64,000 nt of DNA from an uncultured Candidatus Saccharibacteria bacterium (GCA_964457625.1 CAYWES010000002.1:30239-94238), one strand, 5' to 3'; positions 26,679-52,591 are shown, numbered from the stretch's first letter. Translations and numbers: made by a program. Notes: a model not told the origin generated them from the sequence alone.

Positions 26679-27239
26679 ATGAGTGACCCGCAGGAACTTT
26701 TGGAAGTTGTGGACGAAAACGATAATGTCGTTGGTCTGGAAACTCGCGCAAAAATCCACCAAGACGGATTACTCCATCGTGAAATACATATCTGGTTTTT
26801 TACGCCGAACGGTGAAATAATTTTTCAACACCGTGCAAAGGACAAAGACACATACCCTGACAAGCTGGACGCAACGGTAGGTGGGCATGTAGAACCAGGC
26901 ATGTCGTATGAGGAAACGGCGGTGAAAGAATGCAAAGAAGAAACGGGAATAGATATTGATCTGGAAAAACTTGTTCTTGTAAAAAAGATGAGAAACACAA
27001 GTTTTGATGAGGCGACGGGGCTAACCAACAACACTATTCGCGACCAGTATGCCTATCTTTATGAACAGGCACTAGACGAACTGCAGGTGGAGGATGGCAA
27101 GGCATTAGGTTTTGAGACGTGGAGCGTTGACGCTCTTCCTCATCTCTCAGGGTCGGACAAAAATAGGTTTATCCCCCTTATTCTCGAAGAGGATATGCGA
27201 GATATTTTCAATCAAGCGCGAAAGATACTAAATGTATGA
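26679..27239 (+). CDS. Nudix hydrolase
   Basis: Nudix box GGHVEPGMSYEETAVKECKEETGI. Confidence 0.85.
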   Translation: MSDPQELLEVVDENDNVVGLETRAKIHQDGLLHREIHIWFFTPNGEIIFQHRAKDKDTYPDKLDATVGGHVEPGMSYEETAVKECKEETGIDIDLEKLVLVKKMRNTSFDEATGLTNNTIRDQYAYLYEQALDELQVEDGKALGFETWSVDALPHLSGSDKNRFIPLILEEDMRDIFNQARKILNV

Positions 27240-27712
27240 AAAAGGGATACATAACATGTGAACTAAGCGACGAAAGCAGAGAGGAAATCATGTCTTTTGT
27301 TGCAGGGCTTGATGAGTATATTATCAGCTCACCAGAAGGGAAGATACCTAAAGGATTTCACGTAACGATATTTTTTGGGATAAACCCGGAGCTCGTGGAT
27401 GAATCAGTTCTTTATGAAGAGCTTGAGAAGTTTCCTATAAAAGAAGCCTGCGTAAAATCCCTATCGTCTTTTGAATTACCCGCTTACAAATCAAGGATAT
27501 TGGTTCTCGAGCTTAAAGATGAGGAACTCAAAATAGCTCATCGAGATTTTCTTAAATTTCCACACATTGAAGATATTTATACATTAGCCTATAAGCCACA
27601 TGTTACCTTAGGGTATCTGAAAGATAATATTTCAATATCAGATATAAACTACGATGGTCCACTTGTCCTCAGTTTGGAAAAACCCACGTACAAGGTTAAG
27701 GATTTTAGTTAG
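27236..27712 (+). CDS. 2H phosphoesterase superfamily protein (LigT/ThpR-like)
   Basis: Two HxT motifs (FHVTIFF and PHVTLGY). Overlaps the Nudix gene by 4 nt (ATGA). Confidence 0.65.
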   Translation: MKKGYITCELSDESREEIMSFVAGLDEYIISSPEGKIPKGFHVTIFFGINPELVDESVLYEELEKFPIKEACVKSLSSFELPAYKSRILVLELKDEELKIAHRDFLKFPHIEDIYTLAYKPHVTLGYLKDNISISDINYDGPLVLSLEKPTYKVKDFS

Positions 27713-33242: not shown

Positions 33243-34607
33243 GTGTATAATGGGCGAAGCGATATGCGTCACGATATTCACGTTTGGATTATTGTAGGAT
33301 TGGTCATTCTCGGAGGAGCGGGATTTTATGTGTTGAAGTTTCAGCAGTCGCCGACGAGCTACGCGTATACCTTTTTCACCGAGCAGGGGGAGAATGAGAA
33401 AGAGCCGTTTCAGTATGGTGAGCGCACGACACTTTCCAATCCTGATTTTTACGAAGCGACACGGCAGGAGCTGATTCAGGAGAATATTGATTTTATTGAG
33501 GCGAACCTTTCGCTCATGGTGCTGAGGGTATATCAAGAAGGAGCCGTCACGCTTGAGGTCCCTATTCTCAGCAAAGGGCGCAAAGGTTCGTGGTGGGAGA
33601 CTCCGGCAGGGCTCTACAAGGTTGAATACAAGAGCAGAGACCATGCGTCTTCGTTTAGCCCTGTTCGTACGCCGTGGAACATTCAGTTTCAGGGAAATTT
33701 CTTTATCCACGGATGGCCCTCGTATGTTTCAAACGGACAGCCCGTAGACAGCACGTTTTCCGGTGGGTGTATTCGTCTTTCCAGCGAGGATGCTCAAAAG
33801 GTATACAACCTCGCCCTCCTCGGCATGCCCGTTCTCGTCTTTGAAGAAATCTCCGACGACACATACTCATATATACCTACGGTGCCTAATCTTTCCGCAA
33901 CGCAGTATCTCGCGGCAGACCTCAAAAATAATTATGTGTTTCTTGAAAAAGATTCCACAGCCGTCCATTCGTTTTCTCTGGTTACAAAATTTCTCACTGC
34001 GCTCGTCGTCACAGATCACACCAATATTGATAAGCTCATCACCGTCCCTCCTCAAGCACTCGTGCCCACCTGGAAGCCTCGCCTCATCCCCGGAGAGCGC
34101 TACAGTATCTATCAGCTTCTTTTCCCGCTTTTGATTGAGTCCTCAAACGAATCAGCACAGACGCTCGCATATGAGATAGGGGAGGAGCGTTTTGTGAATC
34201 TCATCAATCGCAAAGCGCAGGCGATAGGAATGTCTCATGCCGTTTTCGTGGATGCGTCGGGCGTTTCTCAGGAAAACAAAGGCACGCTGGAGGATGTGTT
34301 TAATCTCTCTCAATATCTCTACAACTATCGCAAGTTTATTTTGAATTTGAGTATTAATGTCGTTGATAACGGAGCATATGAGCCTGCCCTCTGGAAAGGA
34401 CTGGAGGTCTCAACACTCAGCACCATCCCCGGGTATGTGGGCGGGGTTGCGGGAGTGACCGAGGGAGGAAAGCAAGTCGGGTTTGCTGTCGTGGAGATTT
34501 CTTTTGGGGAAGTCGTGCGTCCCATTGTGGTCATTGCTTCAGGAAGTGCGGATGTTCTCAACGACCTTCGTAATATGATTGGATACGTCAGAGGGACGTA
34601 TCGGTAA
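33243..34607 (+). CDS. L,D-transpeptidase (YkuD) domain fused to a PBP5-like D-Ala-D-Ala carboxypeptidase domain
   Basis: N-terminal TM. YkuD catalytic motif HGWPSY...GGCIRL. The C-terminal domain carries an SxN-like motif (LIESSNESAQTLAYEIG) and an SLVTK segment. Confidence 0.75.
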   Translation: MYNGRSDMRHDIHVWIIVGLVILGGAGFYVLKFQQSPTSYAYTFFTEQGENEKEPFQYGERTTLSNPDFYEATRQELIQENIDFIEANLSLMVLRVYQEGAVTLEVPILSKGRKGSWWETPAGLYKVEYKSRDHASSFSPVRTPWNIQFQGNFFIHGWPSYVSNGQPVDSTFSGGCIRLSSEDAQKVYNLALLGMPVLVFEEISDDTYSYIPTVPNLSATQYLAADLKNNYVFLEKDSTAVHSFSLVTKFLTALVVTDHTNIDKLITVPPQALVPTWKPRLIPGERYSIYQLLFPLLIESSNESAQTLAYEIGEERFVNLINRKAQAIGMSHAVFVDASGVSQENKGTLEDVFNLSQYLYNYRKFILNLSINVVDNGAYEPALWKGLEVSTLSTIPGYVGGVAGVTEGGKQVGFAVVEISFGEVVRPIVVIASGSADVLNDLRNMIGYVRGTYR

Positions 34608-35532: not shown

Positions 35533-35567
35533 TTGACAATCCCACGGGGGGGGGGGGGTTTTATATA
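35533..35567 (+). promoter_or_regulatory. Promoter-like module: TTGACA, 23-nt spacer containing a G13 tract, then TATATA, immediately before the serpin ATG
   Basis: TTGACA at 35533-35538, G13 at 35546-35558, TATATA at 35562-35567, ATG at 35572. Confidence 0.45.
35546..35558. repeat. G13 homopolymer tract
   Basis: Thirteen consecutive G, read directly from the sequence. Confidence 0.95.
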
Positions 35568-35571
35568 TATC

Positions 35572-36852
35572 ATGTCACAAAAATCATTTCCCTGGGCTAA
35601 ATTATTCTTGAGCATCTTTTTGGTTTTGCTTGTTGCGGTTATCGGACGAGGTCTATGGGCGTATTACAAGGTTCAGGTTGTGGTACAAGAGGCGGTGCCC
35701 ACACCTCCTCTTGTACCACCTACCGCAAGCATCCCGAGTCATATCGTGGAAGCGCATACCACCTTTGGATTTAATGTTTTGAAATCTCTTGCCTCTACAT
35801 CTGAAGACAACATCTTTATCTCGCCATCAAGTATCGCGCTCGCGCTTTCTATGCTTTATAACGGCGCACGCGGTGCTACTCAGGATGCTATGGCAAAAAC
35901 TCTCGCTCTCGAGGGAATAGATCTCAAGACCCTGAATCAGGAAAGTTTGGGACTCATTAATACGCTCAATAATCCTGAGATGGGAGTTGAGCTTGCTATT
36001 GCAAATTCAGTTTGGGCGCGTGAAGGAGTGTCGTTTGAGAAAGACTTTCTTGATGGTGTCGTTCAGTACTTCCACGCAGAGCTTGCAACTCTTGATTTTA
36101 GAAATGAGCAGGCGGCTAACACGATTAATGCATGGGTGAATAAAAACACAAAAGGAAAAATCCCTGGAATCATTCAACCGCCTATTCCCGCAGACATGAT
36201 GATGTACCTCATTAATGCTGTGTACTTCAAGGGTTCGTGGACCACTCCTTTTGATAAGGGCGATACTCGTGTTGCGCAATTTACCAACGGAGACAAAACT
36301 GTACAACAGATCCCGTTTATGTATCGCGGGGGTTTTATGCCTTATTTCGAAACAGCGGATTTTCAGAGTGTCATGTTACCATATGGGCCGTCTGGCCAAC
36401 CTCCGCTCGTGAGCATGTATGTGTTTTTGCCCAAAAAGTCACTTGCGGATTTTGTATCCACCTTGGACAAAGCCGTGTGGGACATATGGATGAATTCATA
36501 AAGAGGGGAGAGGGGTACACTCTTGTTGCCTAAATTTAAGCTCGAATACGTGACGGAGCTTCGCCCTGTCCTCGGTATTCTTGGTATGGATATTGCGTTT
36601 ACGAATGGTGCTGACTTAGGAGGTCTTGCTCAAGGACTTTCTATCAGTAGTGTGCTACACAAAACATATGTTGATGTTAACGAAGAAGGTACGGAGGCTG
36701 CTGCCGTGACGGCTGTTAGTGTCGGGGCAACGTCTGTTAATCTCGACCCGCCAAAGGAATTTTATATGAATGTGAATCAGCCATTCTTTGTTGCGATTCG
36801 TGAGAACACAACGGGAGAGATTCTATTTACGGGACTTATTCAGAAGCCGTAA
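35572..36852 (+). pseudogene. Serpin (serine protease inhibitor) with an N-terminal membrane anchor, interrupted by one in-frame TAA at 36499-36501
   Basis: Serpin hallmarks: IFISPSSIALALSMLYNGARG, the hinge/reactive-centre loop GTEAAAVTAVSVGATS and the C-terminal NQPFFVAIRE. The two track ORFs (35533-36501 and 36523-36852) share one frame and are separated only by the TAA. Confidence 0.6.
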
Positions 36853-36930: not shown

Positions 36931-37671
36931 ATGACTAATCAAGAGAAGGTCCAAGTGGGTCACATGCACCCCATCACTCAAATGATTCGTGAAATCACGG
37001 ATTCGTTTGTTGCCATGGGATTTGAAATTGCGGATGGACCGGAAGTTGAGAGCGAGCATTATAACTTTGATGCGCTCAATGTGCCCAAAGATCACCCCGC
37101 GCGCGATATGCAAGACACGTTTTGGGTAAAAGGCGTTCCCGAGACCGTGCTTCGTACGCACACGTCCTCGATCCAAGCACGCTTTATGGAGACACACACT
37201 CCTCCTTTCAAGATTGTCGCGCCGGGAAAAGTGTATCGCTACGAAGCCACCGACGCCACGCACGAGACTCAGTTTCATCAGATTGAATGCCTTGTCGTGG
37301 GAGAGGGGATTTCTCTCGCGCATCTGAAACACACGCTTCAAGATTTTTTCAAGAGAATCTATGGGGACAAGGTTGTCGTGCGTACGCGCCCAAGCTTCTT
37401 CCCCTTTGTGGAGCCGGGGGTTGAAATAGATATCTCTTGTTCAAAATGTGATGGCGCGGGATGTGGTATGTGCAAGCACACGGGGTTTATTGAGGTAATG
37501 GGTGGAGGCATGGTGCACCCCAATGTTCTCAAGTCTGTAGGCATTGATCCGCGCAAGTACACGGGCTTTGCCTTTGGCGGAGGAATAGATCGTCTCGTCA
37601 TGCTTAAATACGGCATTGATGATGTGCGCCTTCTGTATTCTGGCGATCTTCGCTTGGTGAATCAATTTTAA
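36931..37671 (+). CDS. pheS: Phenylalanyl-tRNA synthetase alpha subunit (short form)
   Basis: Class II motifs FDALNVPKDHPARDMQDTFW and GGG...FAFGGGIDRL. Confidence 0.9.
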   Translation: MTNQEKVQVGHMHPITQMIREITDSFVAMGFEIADGPEVESEHYNFDALNVPKDHPARDMQDTFWVKGVPETVLRTHTSSIQARFMETHTPPFKIVAPGKVYRYEATDATHETQFHQIECLVVGEGISLAHLKHTLQDFFKRIYGDKVVVRTRPSFFPFVEPGVEIDISCSKCDGAGCGMCKHTGFIEVMGGGMVHPNVLKSVGIDPRKYTGFAFGGGIDRLVMLKYGIDDVRLLYSGDLRLVNQF

Positions 37672-37677
37672 TACGAC

Positions 37678-40050
37678 ATGAACATCCCCATTTCCTACAA
37701 CTGGCTCAAATCTCATTTTGAGAAAGAGATCCCTTCTCCCGAGGAGATTTCGCGTCTTTTTATGCTACACCTCTGCGAGGTTGAAGGTATGGAGAAAAAA
37801 GGGAGCGACACGATTTTTGATCTCAAGATTCTCCCTGATCGTGGGCATGATCTCCTCGCACATCGCGGGATTGCGCGCGAGGTCTCAGTGCTCGCGGGTA
37901 TCCCACTCCGCCCTCTTCCGAGCGCTCCCGATGTACGCGGTGTCACTACTCCTCTCCGCGTGACGGTAGAGGATTCTCAGAGGTGTCCGCGCTACATGGG
38001 GCGTGTTATTTCCGGTATTACGGTGGGAGAATCTCCCACATGGCTCAAAGAGCGCCTTGAGTCCGTCGGACAGCGTTCAATCAATACTATTGTTGATGTC
38101 ACAAACTTCGTCATGCTTGAGCTCGGACAGCCGATGCACGCATTTGATGGAAGCAATATTGAAAAGCGTGATGGTGCATATGAGATTGCCGTGCGCGGGG
38201 CGCAAGAAGGTGAGACCATGACTACACTTGATGGAAAAAATCTTGTCCTTACATCCGACACGCTTGTGATTGCGGATTCCGCTCGCGTGCTCGCGCTTGC
38301 GGGGATCAAAGGGGGGAAGGCGGCGGAGGTTGGGTCTTCTGCAGACACGATCATTCTTGAGTCGGCAAACTTCAATGCCGTAACCACCCGTCGTACGAGC
38401 GCGCGTGTAGGTATTCGTACTGATTCATCAAAGCGCTTTGAACATGAGCTTTCGCCCGCGCTCGCCGAGCAGGCGATGGATCTTGCAAGCGCACTCATCC
38501 TCGAGCTTTGTCCTCGTGCAGAGCTGGGGGAAGTGGTGGATGTTTGCGCTCAGTCGCCAAAGCAGTACAAGGTTGGTATTTCTCTTTCGGAGCTGAACGG
38601 GATTTTAGGCTCATCGTTTGAGAAAAAAGAAGTAGAAGACCTTCTCATGCGGATTGGTTTTGAATACACTGTCGTACCTAATCCTCTTCAATTTGTACTC
38701 GCAGAGGCACCAAAGCAAGCAGGGAAAGCATATCGCCTTGATGCAAGCGTTCTCCATGATGCGCCCGAAACATTTGATTGCTCAAGTTTGGTGGCGTACC
38801 TTTGGAAAGAAGCGGGAGTCTCCCTACCGCGCATGTCGGTGGATCAGATGGTGTTTGGAGATCCTGTCGAAGAATCAGACATGAAGCCGAGCGATTTGGT
38901 ATTTTCAAACAGTGAAGAAGGTGCGATTTTTTATGAATCACAGGAATGGATGCCCGGGACGCCCGTACCCGAAGGCATTGATCATGTGGGAATCTACCTC
39001 GGTGATGACAAAATCATTCACGCATCACGCTACAACGAACACGGCGTTGAGATACAGACTCTTTCAGGTAACCCAATCTTTAAAAAAATCGTAGGGATTC
39101 GTCGTGTCGCTCATGCTGATGAAGAGCGTTTTGTGATTACTATTCCCCTTGAGCGCCTGGACTTGCGTATCAAAGAAGATATTGCAGAGGAGATTGGTCG
39201 CGTGTACGGATTTCATAATATCCCTCCCGCACCGCTTCCTGAGCTTTCTTTTATCCCGAGCCATCTCAAGGCATACTACTACGCGGGCAAGATTCGCGAT
39301 GCACTCGTCACCGCAGGGTTCTCAGAAGTCTTTACCTATTCGTTCCAAAACACAGGCGCATTTGCCGTGGAAAATCCGATAGCAGAGGACAAGGGCTTCT
39401 TGAGAAAAGACCTCGCCACGGGAATCCGCGACGCACTCGTGATGAACGCGCGTCATGCACCCCTTCTCGCACGGGATGACATCAAGATTTTTGAAATAGG
39501 AGCCGTGTACCCCGGAGTAATGGAAGAAAAGCTCTCCTGTGCTATCGGCGTGGAGCTCACCAAGCAGGGAAAGAAAAAAACCGAGCTCACGCGTGCTGAG
39601 CTTGAGAATGCGCAAAAGATAGTGAGTGAAGTACTCGGCGTATCGTTGGATGGGGTATTTACCGAAAACACGTTTGAGTTTGAGTTCGGCGCGCTTCTCG
39701 CGAATCTGCCTGAGATACCTCCTCAGGAGAAAGGATTTGTTTCCGCAGACACGCGCTACACAAAAATCTCCGCGTATCCCTTTGTCCTCCGCGATATTGC
39801 TCTCTGGGTACCTGAGCACGTCTCAAGCGATGACATTGTGACGCTCATTCGGGAGGAGGGAAGCGAGCTCCTCAAAGTGGTGCGCCTCTTTGATGTGTTT
39901 ACCAAGGAATTCCCCGAAGGCAAAAAGACCTCCTATGCATTTAATTTGGTCTTTCAGTCACACGAAAAAACACTCTCCGATGATGAGGTAAACGCTATCA
40001 TGGAGCGCGTCACGCATCGTCTCACCGCCAAAGAATACACCGTGCGCTAA
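37678..40050 (+). CDS. pheT: Phenylalanyl-tRNA synthetase beta subunit with an inserted NlpC/P60-like domain
   Basis: B1, B3/B4, B5, B6/7 and C-terminal FDX-ACB-like regions are recognisable. Residues ~345-476 match NlpC/P60 (DCSSLVAYLW...PSDLVFS...HVGIYLGDDKIIHAS). Confidence 0.9.
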   Translation: MNIPISYNWLKSHFEKEIPSPEEISRLFMLHLCEVEGMEKKGSDTIFDLKILPDRGHDLLAHRGIAREVSVLAGIPLRPLPSAPDVRGVTTPLRVTVEDSQRCPRYMGRVISGITVGESPTWLKERLESVGQRSINTIVDVTNFVMLELGQPMHAFDGSNIEKRDGAYEIAVRGAQEGETMTTLDGKNLVLTSDTLVIADSARVLALAGIKGGKAAEVGSSADTIILESANFNAVTTRRTSARVGIRTDSSKRFEHELSPALAEQAMDLASALILELCPRAELGEVVDVCAQSPKQYKVGISLSELNGILGSSFEKKEVEDLLMRIGFEYTVVPNPLQFVLAEAPKQAGKAYRLDASVLHDAPETFDCSSLVAYLWKEAGVSLPRMSVDQMVFGDPVEESDMKPSDLVFSNSEEGAIFYESQEWMPGTPVPEGIDHVGIYLGDDKIIHASRYNEHGVEIQTLSGNPIFKKIVGIRRVAHADEERFVITIPLERLDLRIKEDIAEEIGRVYGFHNIPPAPLPELSFIPSHLKAYYYAGKIRDALVTAGFSEVFTYSFQNTGAFAVENPIAEDKGFLRKDLATGIRDALVMNARHAPLLARDDIKIFEIGAVYPGVMEEKLSCAIGVELTKQGKKKTELTRAELENAQKIVSEVLGVSLDGVFTENTFEFEFGALLANLPEIPPQEKGFVSADTRYTKISAYPFVLRDIALWVPEHVSSDDIVTLIREEGSELLKVVRLFDVFTKEFPEGKKTSYAFNLVFQSHEKTLSDDEVNAIMERVTHRLTAKEYTVR

Positions 40051-40056
40051 GTCTCT

Positions 40057-40602
40057 ATGATTATTTCTACTCCGTATTACTCTCAATATCTGGATGTGGG
40101 AGATTCTTTTTGGAAAGAGCGGACATGCGCGATTGCGTGCGCAAAGATACTCATTGAGACTGCGGGAGGAAGCGCGCCGGGGCTTGATGTGATGACGATG
40201 CGCGGGATTGAGCTTGAAGCGTATGATCCGCGGTTTGGCTGGATTCATGACGGACTCATTCGCCTTGCGGAAGAGTATGGCACGACGCTTACGCGCAAAG
40301 AATGGCGGACAAAAGAAGATGAAAAGGCGCTCAAAGAGAATCTCAATCAAGAGGGAATTGCATTTTTAATTGAAACACTCAACACAGGGCGCCCCCTCGC
40401 AATATCCACGATTCGCACCTTCACCGAGCAAGAGACATTTCATATGGTGGTCCTCGTGGGATATGAGGAAGGGATAGAGGGAATCGGGGGCTTTTACTAT
40501 CACGACCCGGATGCGCATACGCGCGAGGACGGGATGAACCGTTTTGTTGATATTCAGACCTTCAAAAACTCTTGGCGTTGTATGGCTATTTTTGCCCCAT
40601 AA
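40057..40602 (+). CDS. Peptidase C39-like (C39_2/BtrH-like papain-fold) protein
   Basis: YYSQ...C nucleophile context (TCAIACAK), the His motif HMVVLVGYEE and YYHDP. No signal peptide. Confidence 0.55.
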   Translation: MIISTPYYSQYLDVGDSFWKERTCAIACAKILIETAGGSAPGLDVMTMRGIELEAYDPRFGWIHDGLIRLAEEYGTTLTRKEWRTKEDEKALKENLNQEGIAFLIETLNTGRPLAISTIRTFTEQETFHMVVLVGYEEGIEGIGGFYYHDPDAHTREDGMNRFVDIQTFKNSWRCMAIFAP

Positions 40603-40684
40603 ACACTGTTGCAGAAGGCATTTTTATGCTATACTGGGTGCATAGCAAAGGATGCCTCATAGGGGTATTTTTGTTTACTACACA

Positions 40685-42745
40685 ATGGCGAAAAAAGCAC
40701 CCACAGGATCATACGGAGCAGAGGACATTGTCGTTCTCGAAGGGCTTGAGCCGGTGCGCAAGCGCCCGGGTATGTATATTGGATCTACGGGTCCCGAGGG
40801 TCTCCACCACCTCATTTGGGAAATCTTTGACAACTCGCGTGACGAGGCGATGAACGGTCACGCAAACCACATTGAGGTTGCGCTCCTTCCGGGAAATCGC
40901 GTACGTATCGTTGATAATGGTCGCGGTATTCCCGTGGGCATTCACCCAAAGACAAAAGTCTCTGCGCTTGAGACAATCATGACCACCCTCCATGCCGGAG
41001 GAAAGTTTGAAGGCGCAAACTACAAAGTCTCCGGCGGTCTCCATGGAGTGGGTGCGTCCGTGGTAAACGCGCTCTCTGTCGCGACCAAGGTAGAAGTACA
41101 CCAAGACGGCTCGGTGCATATGCAGGAGTACGAGCGTGGCAAGAGAAAGTCCGCGGTGAAGGTTGTCGGCAAGACGAAATTTCGCGGAACTATTGTGACG
41201 TTTGAGCCGGACGAACTCATTTTCAAAGAGATGGGGTGGAGCTGGAATCAGATTGTGAGCCACCTTCGTCAGCAGGCGTACTTGGTAAAGGCGCTCCGCA
41301 TCACGGTGATTGACGCGCGCGAGTACACCGGGAAGCTCAATCTTGAAAACGAGGCATACCTCGGTACCTTTGGACTTGAAGTCCCTTCTATGTCATTTTA
41401 CTTTGACGGAGGACTTGTCTCCCTCATTCGTTTTTATAATCAATACCAAAAGCCCGTTCACAAGAATATTTGCCATATTGATAAAGAAGTGGACGAGGTA
41501 CAGGTGGAAGTCGCGATTCAATATATTGACGACATCGCGTCTCGCGAGCTTGCTTTTGCAAACAACACTTACAACGCCGAAGGAGGTACGCACGTCACGG
41601 GATTTCGTACCGCGCTTACGCGCAAGCTCAATGACTACGGACGCAAAAACGGCTTCATCAAGGAAAATGACGAAAACTTCACCGCAGACGATGTACGCGA
41701 AGGTCTCACCGCCGCAATCTCCGTCAAAATGCGTGAGATTCAGTTTGAAGGGCAGACAAAAGGCAAGCTCGGAAGCGTGGAAGCGCGTGGTGCTGTTGAA
41801 AAGGCGTTTGGTGAAGCGCTCGGACTCTTTCTTGAAGAAAATCCTGACGACGCACGCGCGATTATCAACAAAGTAGTCCTCGCGCTCCGTGCGCGCAAGG
41901 CGGCAAAGGCGGCAAAGGAGTCCGTCCTCCGCAAGGGCGCCCTCGAGGGGCTCACCCTTCCTGGTAAGCTTGCTGACTGTCAGACTTCAAAAGCGGAAGA
42001 ATCTGAAATCTTTATCGTAGAGGGAGATTCCGCGGGTGGTTCTTCAAAGCAGGGTCGTGATCGTCGCACACAGGCGATCCTTCCGCTCAAGGGTAAAATC
42101 CTCAATGTAGAGCGCGCCCGTCTGGACAAAATGCTCGCGTCTGCCGAGATTCGTTCGCTGGTCATTGCCATGGGGTGTGGTATCGGTGATGTGTTTGATG
42201 TTGAGAAGCTTCGCTATCACAAGATTATCATCGCGACCGATGCCGACGTCGACGGAGCGCATATTCGCACGCTCATTTTGACGCTCTTGTATCGCTATTT
42301 CCGTCCCGTCATTGAAGGCGGATATGTATATATCGCACAGCCTCCTCTGTACAAGATTACCTACAACAAGCAAGTACACTACGCGTACTCCGACGAGGAG
42401 CGTGACAAGACGTATCTCACGCTGGGCTTCAAGCAGGAAGATTTTGCAAACGTAGATACCGCGGAAGCGGAAAACCAAGAAGGTGCGGGCGAAGAAGCGG
42501 AGGAAGAGGTCGTCGCAAAGAAAAAGAAACTCCCTTCAACCCAGCGCTACAAGGGTCTCGGTGAAATGAACCCCGAAGAGCTCTGGGAGACGACGATGGA
42601 TCCAAAGACGCGCGTCTTGAAGCAGGTGACTATTGAGGATGCGGTGGACGCGGACCGCGCCATCAACGTGCTCATGGGTGAGGATGTTGCGTCGCGCAAG
42701 TCCTTTATTCAGTCCAATGCCAAAATGGCAAATATTGATGTATAA
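40685..42745 (+). CDS. gyrB: DNA gyrase subunit B
   Basis: GHKL ATPase motifs (HHLIWEIFDNSRDEA, GGLHGVGASVVNALS), the TOPRIM EGDSAGGS, and C-terminal PLxGK and QRYKGLGEM. Confidence 0.9.
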   Translation: MAKKAPTGSYGAEDIVVLEGLEPVRKRPGMYIGSTGPEGLHHLIWEIFDNSRDEAMNGHANHIEVALLPGNRVRIVDNGRGIPVGIHPKTKVSALETIMTTLHAGGKFEGANYKVSGGLHGVGASVVNALSVATKVEVHQDGSVHMQEYERGKRKSAVKVVGKTKFRGTIVTFEPDELIFKEMGWSWNQIVSHLRQQAYLVKALRITVIDAREYTGKLNLENEAYLGTFGLEVPSMSFYFDGGLVSLIRFYNQYQKPVHKNICHIDKEVDEVQVEVAIQYIDDIASRELAFANNTYNAEGGTHVTGFRTALTRKLNDYGRKNGFIKENDENFTADDVREGLTAAISVKMREIQFEGQTKGKLGSVEARGAVEKAFGEALGLFLEENPDDARAIINKVVLALRARKAAKAAKESVLRKGALEGLTLPGKLADCQTSKAEESEIFIVEGDSAGGSSKQGRDRRTQAILPLKGKILNVERARLDKMLASAEIRSLVIAMGCGIGDVFDVEKLRYHKIIIATDADVDGAHIRTLILTLLYRYFRPVIEGGYVYIAQPPLYKITYNKQVHYAYSDEERDKTYLTLGFKQEDFANVDTAEAENQEGAGEEAEEEVVAKKKKLPSTQRYKGLGEMNPEELWETTMDPKTRVLKQVTIEDAVDADRAINVLMGEDVASRKSFIQSNAKMANIDV

Positions 42746-51688: not shown

Positions 51689-52591
51689 ATGGCAAATAGA
51701 CACCTTTCCCGAAGTATCGTCATGCAGACTCTCTACGAATGGGATTTTCGCGGAGGAAATCTGACATCACTTGAGGTAGAGCAGGCGCTCGCGCGCAATG
51801 TTCAAGAATTTGCTCCAGGGTCAAATGATATGTCTTTTATGCGCCCTCTCCTCCTCGGCATCATTGAGAAGCGCCCAAAGCTTGATACCATTATTGAAAA
51901 GGCAGCCCCTGATTGGCCACTTGAAAAGATTGCGCTCGTTGACCGAAACATTCTCCGCGTAGGGTTGTATGAACTTCTCTTTGAGGATCGCGCGGTGGTA
52001 CCCGCAAAAGTTGCCATCAACGAAGCGATTGAACTCGCGAAAACATACGGAGGAGAGACGAGCGGTAAGTTTGTAAACGGAGTGCTCGGTGCGGTCTACA
52101 AGGAGCTCGGTGAGCCCGGTAAAGAAGAGACGAGCAAAAAGAAACACAAGGAAGTCATTGACCCTAAAACTCTCCCGCTCGAGCGCCTTGGGGGAGCGGT
52201 AGTCTTTGCGCGGGCGGACGAGGAAGTATACCTCGCGCTCGTGCATGATATCTTTGGTCACTGGACCCTTTCCAAAGGACACTTTCAAGAGGGGGAAGAG
52301 GATAAAGATGCTATCGTGCGCATCGTGGCTGAGGAGATAGGATTGCCGGTAAAGCCTCTGGATCTTTTGGGAGAGAATGAATACGTGGCGTCACATCCCG
52401 AAAAGGGAAAGCTTCGCAAGCATGTGAGCTATTTCCTCGCCGAGGCTCCGTATCAGGAGGTGGAGCTTCTCAAAAAAGGAGGTCTCGATGATGTGCGCTG
52501 GTTTAGGCTCGCGGACATTCTTGACCTCAAAATGTATGACGACATGGTACCCGTCATTACGAAAGCCGTAAATATATTGCTCAAAAAATAA
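51689..52591 (+). CDS. nusB: Transcription antitermination factor NusB fused to a C-terminal Nudix-like domain
   Basis: NusB motifs (QTLYEWDF, DRNILRVGLYELLF) in residues 1-150. The C-terminal ~140 aa carry a Nudix-box-like GHWTLSKGHFQEGEEDKDAIVRIVAEEIGL. Confidence 0.75.
   Translation: MANRHLSRSIVMQTLYEWDFRGGNLTSLEVEQALARNVQEFAPGSNDMSFMRPLLLGIIEKRPKLDTIIEKAAPDWPLEKIALVDRNILRVGLYELLFEDRAVVPAKVAINEAIELAKTYGGETSGKFVNGVLGAVYKELGEPGKEETSKKKHKEVIDPKTLPLERLGGAVVFARADEEVYLALVHDIFGHWTLSKGHFQEGEEDKDAIVRIVAEEIGLPVKPLDLLGENEYVASHPEKGKLRKHVSYFLAEAPYQEVELLKKGGLDDVRWFRLADILDLKMYDDMVPVITKAVNILLKK

Follow-up and report, generated by a model that had tools for sequence, protein, structure and literature searches.

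The window analysed here, a stretch of 64,000 nucleotides (nt) from an uncultured Candidatus Saccharibacteria bacterium (GCA_964457625.1 CAYWES010000002.1:30239-94238), carries on its + strand a pheT gene (37678..40050) whose product, the beta subunit of phenylalanyl-tRNA synthetase (PheRS), holds a cysteine peptidase domain of the NlpC/P60 (C40) family nested within its B5 domain. The protein is 790 residues long and is encoded by one uninterrupted open reading frame (ORF); the nested domain spans 149 residues (334-482, nucleotides 38677..39123, + strand). The gene that follows (40057..40602, + strand) encodes a leaderless C39-like cysteine peptidase of papain fold, 181 residues long. Built from known folds, both the domain architecture and the two-gene module are new, and the literature searched gave no description of an NlpC/P60 domain within PheRS or an NlpC/P60-C39 pair in Patescibacteria. 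We tentatively favour the hypothesis that the two proteins provide a leaderless cytoplasmic two-peptidase module lodged on PheRS, which would probably cleave gamma-D-glutamyl-type peptides and not aminoacyl-tRNA. The architecture and the separability of the module are much firmer than this overall reading, and the assignment of a specific muropeptide substrate, which draws on analogy, is weaker than it.

The position of the insert was mapped by alignment with relatives that have none. The junction reads RIGFEYTVV[PNPLQ...RRVAHADE]ERFVITIP in the window protein versus RLGFTYTY-EGQSFVVGIP in insert-less relatives. The N-terminal half of B5 (residues 297-333, 38566..38676, + strand) can be aligned with E. 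coli PheT as far as residue ~440 and with the insert-less relatives, and the C-terminal half (residues 483-515, 39124..39222, + strand) aligns from E. coli residue 444 on; when placed on E. coli PheT (3pco_B), the flanks of the insert fall at residues ~438-440 and 444-446. The insert stands in place of a beta-hairpin turn of B5, a winged-helix-like domain, and splits the Pfam B5 model, of which only profile positions 32-67 align, directly after the insert, at residues 477-512. The PheT proteins of E. coli and T. thermophilus have no such insert at this site, which corresponds to E. coli residues ~440-445. The original prediction, made from the window sequence, had placed an NlpC/P60 domain at 38710-39105 and described it as an internal insertion in B5, not a terminal fusion, and as a non-standard PheT architecture. 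The domain and the motifs quoted for it are all present in the 790-residue ORF, its flanks align to both B5 halves in relatives and it is absent from the two reference PheT proteins, in agreement with that description; the limits need a small correction, the alignment with insert-less relatives giving the slightly wider interval 38677-39123.

Profile, triad order and predicted fold make the insert a bona fide member of the NlpC/P60 (C40) family. Pfam assigns NLPC_P60 to PheT residues 363-476 with 59.7 bits (gathering cutoff 23), and the segment 38710-39105 taken alone matches PF00877 with 66.9 bits (E 1.7e-18), as the original prediction had anticipated when proposing this search. All NCBIfam matches of the insert are to C40-type peptidase families. 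These matches, together with the equivalog-level score of the host protein given below, are far beyond chance. A comparison with the Protein Data Bank returned 27 NlpC/P60 chains at E <= 1e-3 (7cfl_A, E 2.7e-13), and the closest solved proteins by sequence are the P60-type wall endopeptidases 7cfl, 8v3w, 4xcm, RipA/B, MepS and CwlO. The AlphaFold2 (AF2) model of the full PheT, derived from an alignment of 66 homologues, has a mean predicted local distance difference test (pLDDT) score of 91.2, with values of 91-98 in the blocks of the insert. Superposition of the modelled insert on the catalytic domain of Acd24020, an autolysin of C. difficile (7cfl_B), gives a template-modelling (TM) score of 0.91, a root-mean-square deviation of 1.6 A and 31% identity, and Foldseek gives a TM of 0.86 to 9ubf_A; the body of the model retrieves bacterial PheRS beta chains with Foldseek E ~1e-46.

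The catalytic codons are those of Cys368 (38779-38781), His436 (38983-38985) and His448 (39019-39021), in the non-permuted order Cys...His...His, and Cys368 heads helix 368-378 in the model. The triad, already regarded as intact from the window sequence, is invariant in 90/90 insert-bearing PheT sequences. At least 88 of the 90 also conserve Tyr352, Asp367, Gly380, Pro384, Arg385, Asp389, Asp406, Phe409, Glu420, Glu423, Gly433, Gly438, Phe468, Gly473 and Arg476, and the P60-family motifs PY..G, DCS, PR..Q, GDL.F and HVGIY.G..IHA are present in the insert. Apparently, then, this is a conserved and catalytically competent cysteine hydrolase domain. Similarity to the known editing and deacylase families (B3/B4, YbaK/INS, AlaX, DTD) was looked for and none was found, all matches in Pfam and NCBIfam being to C40 families and all structural matches to NlpC/P60 proteins. 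A lineage-specific conserved loop (residues ~411-433, IxYESxEWMxGTKVPxG, 38908..38976, + strand) lies directly before the strand of the catalytic His. It forms a beta-hairpin in the AF2 model (E418-420, E429-434), its residues Glu420 and Glu423 are each conserved in 89/90 sequences, and pairwise alignments reveal no counterpart of it in 7cfl and 4xcm.

Judged from its sequence profile, the host protein is a genuine bacterial PheT, of the reduced type that marks its lineage. It scores 432.3 bits against TIGR00472 (pheT_bact), above the equivalog cutoff of 402.65 in the NCBIfam profile search, and its Pfam domains are B3_4, B5, tRNA_synthFbeta and FDX-ACB, in addition to NLPC_P60. The B3/B4 editing domain (residues 103-278, 37984..38511, + strand; Pfam B3_4, 203 bits) keeps its editing-site residues; the catalytic-like module and the FDX-ACB anticodon-binding domain occupy 39235..40032 (+ strand), with Pfam matches to tRNA_synthFbeta at residues 520-617 and to FDX-ACB at 698-785. 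The B2 (EMAP/OB-fold) domain is absent from PheT, residue 43 of the window protein aligning to E. coli residue 154 with no tRNA_bind match, and the protein thus falls short of the complete eight-domain layout. The alpha subunit is encoded by pheS (36931..37671, + strand), which ends 7 nt upstream of pheT. PheS has 246 residues and consists of the catalytic core only, without the N-terminal coiled coil (Pfam tRNA-synt_2d, 329.9 bits, residues 4-246); the ORF allows no further upstream extension. The same reduced PheRS, with a PheS of 242-287 residues devoid of the coiled-coil tRNA-binding arm and a PheT devoid of B2, is found in relatives with and without the insert. Since insert-less relatives also have no B2, its loss is a lineage trait unrelated to the insert. 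B5 itself, which is among the beta subunit's two helix-turn-helix domains described as 'DNA-binding-like', has no assigned catalytic role (PMC3275996).

The architecture recurs widely within one group of bacteria. Among the best 120 matches examined from a search over 5.8 billion proteins, 90 are PheT proteins that carry the insert, with an overall identity of 45-67%, and the other 30 have no insert. A scan of 1.84 billion cluster representatives (clusters at 50% identity) yielded 111 clusters at E <= 1e-30, and full-length insert-bearing PheT makes up 105 of the best 150 clusters. Species-representative genomes show the full junction in Paceibacteria-type Patescibacteria alone, namely Paceibacterota, Campbell-, Kaiser-, Zambryski- and Nomurabacteria and Minisyncoccia; taken together with the protein search, the range stays within Paceibacteria and takes in Yonathbacteria. 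The next matches among the species-representative genomes (loci L022-L046) are mostly free NlpC/P60 genes of Firmicutes and Actinobacteria with 27-38% identity, and those after L046 match the B5 end of pheT only. The window PheT is identical to a protein on a 98.6-kb public contig, and its nearest named relatives are Candidatus Yonathbacteria. Mean pairwise identity is 0.558 in the insert, 0.518 in the rest of PheT and 0.614 in the editing domain. Distances between inserts track those between the host proteins (Mantel r = 0.84; 0/999 permutations as high). Such comparisons show an insert that is old, congruent with the host protein and under constraint equal to or above that of the rest of PheT, a pattern that fits long vertical co-inheritance under purifying selection. 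Proteins with 4-9 tandem NlpC/P60 domains (P0121, P0150 and P0239) also appear among the matches at 30-36% identity and have an unrelated architecture; P0121, of 1183 residues, has nine NlpC/P60 repeats (707 bits).

Close relatives without the insert are 55-66% identical in the flanks and have a hairpin of native length, and this comparison shows that the insert is dispensable for aminoacylation. In a neighbour-joining tree built from the non-insert columns, insert-less and insert-bearing sequences are interleaved, at least 3 presence/absence changes being needed in 98/100 bootstrap replicates. All insert-less hairpins have the same length as those of distant Paceibacteria and of E. coli, which is the ancestral length; because of this uniformity, recombination that swaps alleles is no less plausible than clean deletion occurring repeatedly. 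Across 66 sequences, some carrying the insert and some not, the residues equivalent to E. coli His265 and Glu334 (H154 and E228) are invariant and the equivalent of Thr354 (T248) is kept in at least 90%; E. coli Ala356 corresponds to Ser250 in the window PheT. Replacement of the editing site by the insert was considered and rejected on the ground that these canonical B3/B4 residues are kept in both groups. The editing-like or deacylase-like activity suggested in the original prediction is disfavoured by the same residues and by the occurrence of the module, free or fused to the C39-like domain, away from PheT; its other suggestion, a moonlighting module, fits a module that can be separated from its host.

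The evidence for this separability comes from complete leaderless proteins of ~200-240 residues that consist of the B5 N-terminal half, the NlpC/P60 domain and the B5 C-terminal half, found in roughly 40 clusters at 90% identity. The triad of these free forms is Cys-His-His in 45/48 and Cys-His-Gln in 3/48. In another 16 clusters, of 391-399 residues, the B5::NlpC/P60 unit is joined to a C39-like domain in a single polypeptide; these fusions are 39-73% identical to the query P0176, one of them lies on a 534-kb contig, and 16/16 retain Cys-His-His together with the Gln-Cys-His-Asp set of the C39-like domain. The recurrence of such forms shows that B5 with its nested NlpC/P60 domain is a self-contained unit. 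No leader, lipobox, SH3b, LysM or PG-binding domain was found in PheT, in the free modules or in the fusions, the free and fused forms starting at the B5 sequence. The free or fused genes of loci L091, L092 and L093 have no adjacent pheS-like gene. Neighbours of the stand-alone gene in L093 code for Peptidase_S11, Glycos_transf_4, VanW/PG_binding_4, DUF218 and Peptidase_M23 proteins. A CAP-domain (PF00188) gene is found one gene upstream of the fusion in L092 (L092:3081-4016) and, in L093 (L093:3992-4909), immediately before the stand-alone form; it may be a third associated gene.

The arrangement in locus L019, from the Minisyncoccia metagenome-assembled genome JBAQOA010000030, illustrates how the module can be kept when pheT is not. 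The pheS/pheT position is held there by a single-chain enzyme of 382 residues (L019:4833-5981) made of a PheS core and FDX-ACB, the same layout as in the monomeric PheRS of mitochondria. After it come the free module, the C39-like gene, whose start is overlapped by the stop of the module, and gyrB. The single-chain protein scores 251 bits against a cutoff of 300 for the NCBIfam model 'PheS-related mystery ligase SrmL' and 238 bits against a cutoff of 258 for pheS_mito. In some Patescibacteria a monomeric PheRS may have taken the place of the heterotetrameric one. The pair of module and C39-like gene is kept without pheT both in L019 and in L091.

In the window the gene order on the + strand is pheS, pheT, the 181-residue ORF and gyrB (40652-42745). 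The ORF between pheT and gyrB, which had been noticed from the sequence as a second papain-fold, C39-like gene, matches Peptidase_C39_2 with 33.6 bits (cutoff 24). Its homologues are ~170-200 residues long, are named only in Patescibacteria records and start directly at a conserved PYYSQ motif without any leader; Gln10, Cys24 and His129 are invariant in the family and Asp150/152 is kept in at least 90%. The AF2 model (pLDDT 96.1) has the clan-CA papain fold. Its nearest folds are generic (TM 0.55-0.65) and include 3erv, ComA, LahT, Alr0975 and PeiR, and also PCAT1 and UfSP1. With a hidden Markov model (HMM) of the family, the C39-like gene was located directly 3' of the gene that bears the module in 13 loci, and after an insert-less pheT in 0/11 distinct loci. 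In the window's own clade the gene is present in 4/4 insert-bearing loci versus 0/6 insert-less ones, and in L087, where the pheS-pheT-gyrB synteny is kept, pheT abuts gyrB and neither the insert nor the C39-like gene is present. A functional partnership of the module and the C39-like gene is the most economical reading, because of this adjacency, the co-absence, the retention as a pair and the gene fusion. In the insert-less loci L081-L085 the gap between pheT and gyrB often holds Glycos_transf_4 (MraY/WecA-type) and asparagine-synthase-like amidotransferase genes, which are envelope-related and occupy the same slot as the C39-like gene.

For the function of the pair, the most instructive precedent is YkfC of B. 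cereus, B. subtilis and Chlamydia trachomatis, a leaderless cytosolic NlpC/P60 enzyme with a Cys-His-His triad that acts in muropeptide recycling; of its two SH3b domains, one builds the S2 pocket that takes up the free L-Ala terminus (PMC9928106). The insert resembles YkfC in being leaderless, cytosolic and of the Cys-His-His type, and Chlamydia likewise has a reduced genome, making this the best functional analogy. The two differ in that YkfC is a free protein with SH3b domains and without a C39-like partner, whereas the insert is part of an aminoacyl-tRNA synthetase and has no SH3b. According to the hypothesis that we tentatively favour, the two thiol hydrolases would form a cytoplasmic two-enzyme module, their location being deduced from the absence of a leader, and PheRS would be only its carrier or scaffold. 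Its substrates would be small peptides whose linkages are not of ribosomal origin, most likely stem peptides from the wall. The NlpC/P60 domain would cut the gamma-D-glutamyl-type isopeptide bond of small free peptides derived from peptidoglycan, and the C39-like enzyme would take the next or the previous cut. The cleavage would salvage amino acids for a wall-building cell with little biosynthetic capacity. The acidic loop with Glu420 and Glu423, beside the catalytic His, may replace the SH3b-borne S2 site with which YkfC holds the free amino terminus. A gamma-D-Glu substrate is proposed because of the P60 motifs and DL-endopeptidase relatives of the insert and because of the leaderless YkfC precedent.

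A link to the cell wall is supported by the nature of the closest solved relatives, which are DL-endopeptidases and autolysins, and by the gene neighbourhood of the stand-alone form in L093. The protein encoded at 33243-34607, ~2.3 kb upstream of pheS, has YkuD L,D-transpeptidase and Peptidase_S11 D-Ala-D-Ala carboxypeptidase domains, and the presence of this wall enzyme in the window indicates that the organism probably makes peptidoglycan. It is also, in itself, an unusual fusion of two wall-remodelling activities. Several points weigh against the two-peptidase hypothesis. The muropeptide assignment rests on family resemblance, and no SH3b match, the S2 site of YkfC-type enzymes, was found in PheT or in the module. 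The choice of PheRS as carrier is without explanation, phenylalanine not being a peptidoglycan component. The fold of the C39-like protein was tried as a guide to its substrate and is uninformative, since it gives only generic clan-CA matches (TM 0.55-0.65). No C39-like gene is found nearby in 8 assessable insert-bearing loci, so that the coupling is not obligatory or the partner is elsewhere in the genome. The Fisher test of the adjacency between module and C39-like gene gives p = 6e-4 uncorrected for phylogeny, and recombination could co-transfer both states, as the C39-like gene is physically linked to pheT.

Other activities can be envisaged for two cytoplasmic thiol hydrolases. Both proteins could process ribosomal peptides or proteins, for instance by leader removal or by de-conjugation of a small modifier, and docking on a translation enzyme could bring them near nascent products. 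Both enzymes are leaderless and cytoplasmic, and the C39-like fold lies near the double-glycine leader peptidases ComA and LahT, PCAT1 and the UFM1-specific protease UfSP1. We nevertheless regard this as unlikely, since these fold matches are weak and generic, the motifs and solved relatives of the insert are those of DL-endopeptidases acting on gamma-D-Glu bonds, and neither an ABC exporter nor a double-glycine precursor-peptide gene was found beside the pair in the loci examined. It is slightly less probable that the domain is a sensor or regulatory appendage that binds a small ligand, from the wall or of another kind, perhaps with slow turnover, or that serves as a dock for the C39-like protein, and thereby modulates the activity or localisation of PheRS to couple translation to envelope status. 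Inactive NlpC/P60 binding proteins are known, NlpC_inact_RipD being among the weak NCBIfam matches, and B5 is always kept with the NlpC/P60 domain, in free and fused forms too, suggesting that its surface matters. This retention is, however, trivially explained if the two B5 halves hold the ends of the insert together; free forms, with no PheT to regulate, are common, and preservation of the triad in 90/90 embedded, 16/16 fused and 45/48 free copies argues for catalysis. Improbable as well, and somewhat more so, is a hydrolase acting in cis on PheRS, or in trans when free, on the ester or amide bond of mischarged, D-aminoacyl, N-acyl or peptidyl tRNAPhe. The host is a tRNA synthetase subunit, thiol hydrolases are able to cleave esters, and the single-chain enzyme of L019, which has no B3/B4, is adjoined by a free module as might be expected of a trans-editing factor. 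On the other hand, the near-complete conservation of H154, E228 and T248 with and without the insert leaves no editing gap to fill, and the insert matches C40 peptidases and no editing or deacylase family. It also comes and goes among close relatives without other changes in PheT. The free and fused genes of L091, L092 and L093 are not beside a pheS-like gene, and the tight link to the C39-like gene has no place in such a model.

Two more distant proposals receive very little credit from us. Cys368 could in principle act as a thiol acyl-transferase, capturing the phenylalanyl group of Phe-AMP or Phe-tRNAPhe formed a few nanometres from it, or a peptide acyl group, and passing it to an amine acceptor such as the stem peptide of a wall precursor, the C39-like enzyme providing a second step. 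LRAT-type enzymes of the NlpC/P60 superfamily do act through an acyl-Cys thioester. Equally far-fetched is an exported or surface autolysin, in which PheRS or a fragment released from it would act outside the cell, for example on the wall of a host bacterium. The nearest relatives of the insert are secreted autolysins, and Patescibacteria are episymbionts that attack host envelopes. Against this, PheRS is an essential cytoplasmic enzyme, the window encodes ordinary exported wall enzymes separately, and PheT, the free and fused modules and the C39-like partner gave no match to a signal peptide, lipobox or wall-binding domain. As to an artefact, whether a chimeric assembly, a mis-called gene, an intein or a mobile-element insertion, its chance is practically nil: only the oddity of the architecture speaks for it, and it is refuted by recurrence, conservation and the identical protein on the public contig. 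Chimeric assembly and gene mis-calling were rejected because the architecture recurs in more than 100 diverged clusters, which come from many samples and sources. An intein was rejected because Pfam gives no Hint match, the insert starts at Pro334 and ends with Asp-Glu (Glu482) ahead of Glu483, and there is neither a Cys/Ser/Thr +1 nucleophile nor a His-Asn pair. A mobile insertion was rejected since the flanking repeats are trivial and the GC content of the insert is close to that of its flanks. The only repeat pair near the boundaries of the insert, an imperfect 11-nt direct repeat (38644-38654 CTCATGCGGAT and 39110-39120 CTCATGCTGAT), was judged to be due to chance because its spacing of 466 nt is out of frame.

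Comparison with characterised proteins helps to situate both halves of the proposed two-peptidase module. The P60-type NlpC/P60 DL-endopeptidases (Acd24020, 7cfl; the T. thermophilus protein 4xcm; E. coli MepS/Spr; B. subtilis CwlO; M. tuberculosis RipA/B) share fold, triad order and motifs with the insert. They are exported, usually with SH3b, LysM or coiled-coil targeting parts, whereas the insert is leaderless and nested in a tRNA synthetase; it also differs from them by the extra conserved acidic loop of ~14 residues before the catalytic His. The window PheT shares with the bacterial PheRS beta subunits of T. thermophilus (1pys, 2iy5) and E. coli (3pco) the B3/B4 and B5 domains, the catalytic-like module, FDX-ACB and the adjacency to pheS. 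It departs from them by having no B2, a PheS partner without the coiled-coil arm and a B5 interrupted by an enzyme domain. Hydrolytic domains nested in synthetases are known from CP1 of LeuRS, IleRS and ValRS and from INS of ProRS; they act on aminoacyl-tRNA and are near-universal in their families. Like them, the insert is a hydrolytic domain in a surface loop of a synthetase. Unlike them, it belongs to a peptidase superfamily, is found in one bacterial class, is variable among close relatives and persists as a free form without the synthetase. The partner shares its fold and the Gln/Cys/His/Asp residues with Peptidase_C39_2 and C39-like members of clan CA (B. anthracis 3erv, ComA, LahT and the phytochelatin-synthase-like Alr0975). 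It is set apart by being a free protein of ~180 residues with no ABC-transporter fusion and no identified leader-peptide substrate, present in Patescibacteria records only and tied to the NlpC/P60 module.

A few other features of the window deserve mention. A serpin gene is split into the adjacent ORFs 35533-36501 and 36523-36852, which match Pfam Serpin positions 2-251 and 265-370, respectively; this is either an interrupted gene or pseudogene, or a sequencing error. Serpins are uncommon in bacteria. The ORF at 51689-52591 encodes a NusB-NUDIX fusion protein (NusB, residues 7-138; NUDIX, residues 171-290). The small ORF 27236-27712, which adjoins a NUDIX gene (26679-27239), matches the anti-CBASS Acb1 family with 29.5 bits (cutoff 27). 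Acb1 is a phage counter-defence family, found here in a cellular genome.

Aminoacyl-tRNA synthetases rank with the most conserved proteins, and domains added to them as a rule point to new biology, for instance editing, signalling or the formation of complexes. In the present case a stripped-down PheRS has gained a full catalytic cysteine peptidase and kept it in a large part of one major class within the Candidate Phyla Radiation, and the pair formed by the peptidase and its partner outlives replacement of the synthetase subunit. There is also a consequence for annotation, as the labels in public records are automatic ones only: at NCBI, some of the essential PheT proteins are entered as 'phenylalanine--tRNA ligase beta subunit-related protein', others as 'C40 family peptidase' or 'hypothetical protein'. 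The module is a compact, uncharacterised two-enzyme system that is directly testable, since its proteins are small and soluble, the active-site mutants to make are clear and a genetic assay of muropeptide cleavage already exists. Should the acyl-transfer proposal be true, it would be a previously unknown ribosome-independent, synthetase-coupled system of peptide-bond formation or peptide editing in Patescibacteria. Should the salvage of wall-derived peptides be true, it would throw light on how ultra-small episymbionts of low biosynthetic capacity feed their cell-wall and amino-acid pools, and would be a rare case of a housekeeping enzyme serving as carrier for an unrelated catalytic domain.

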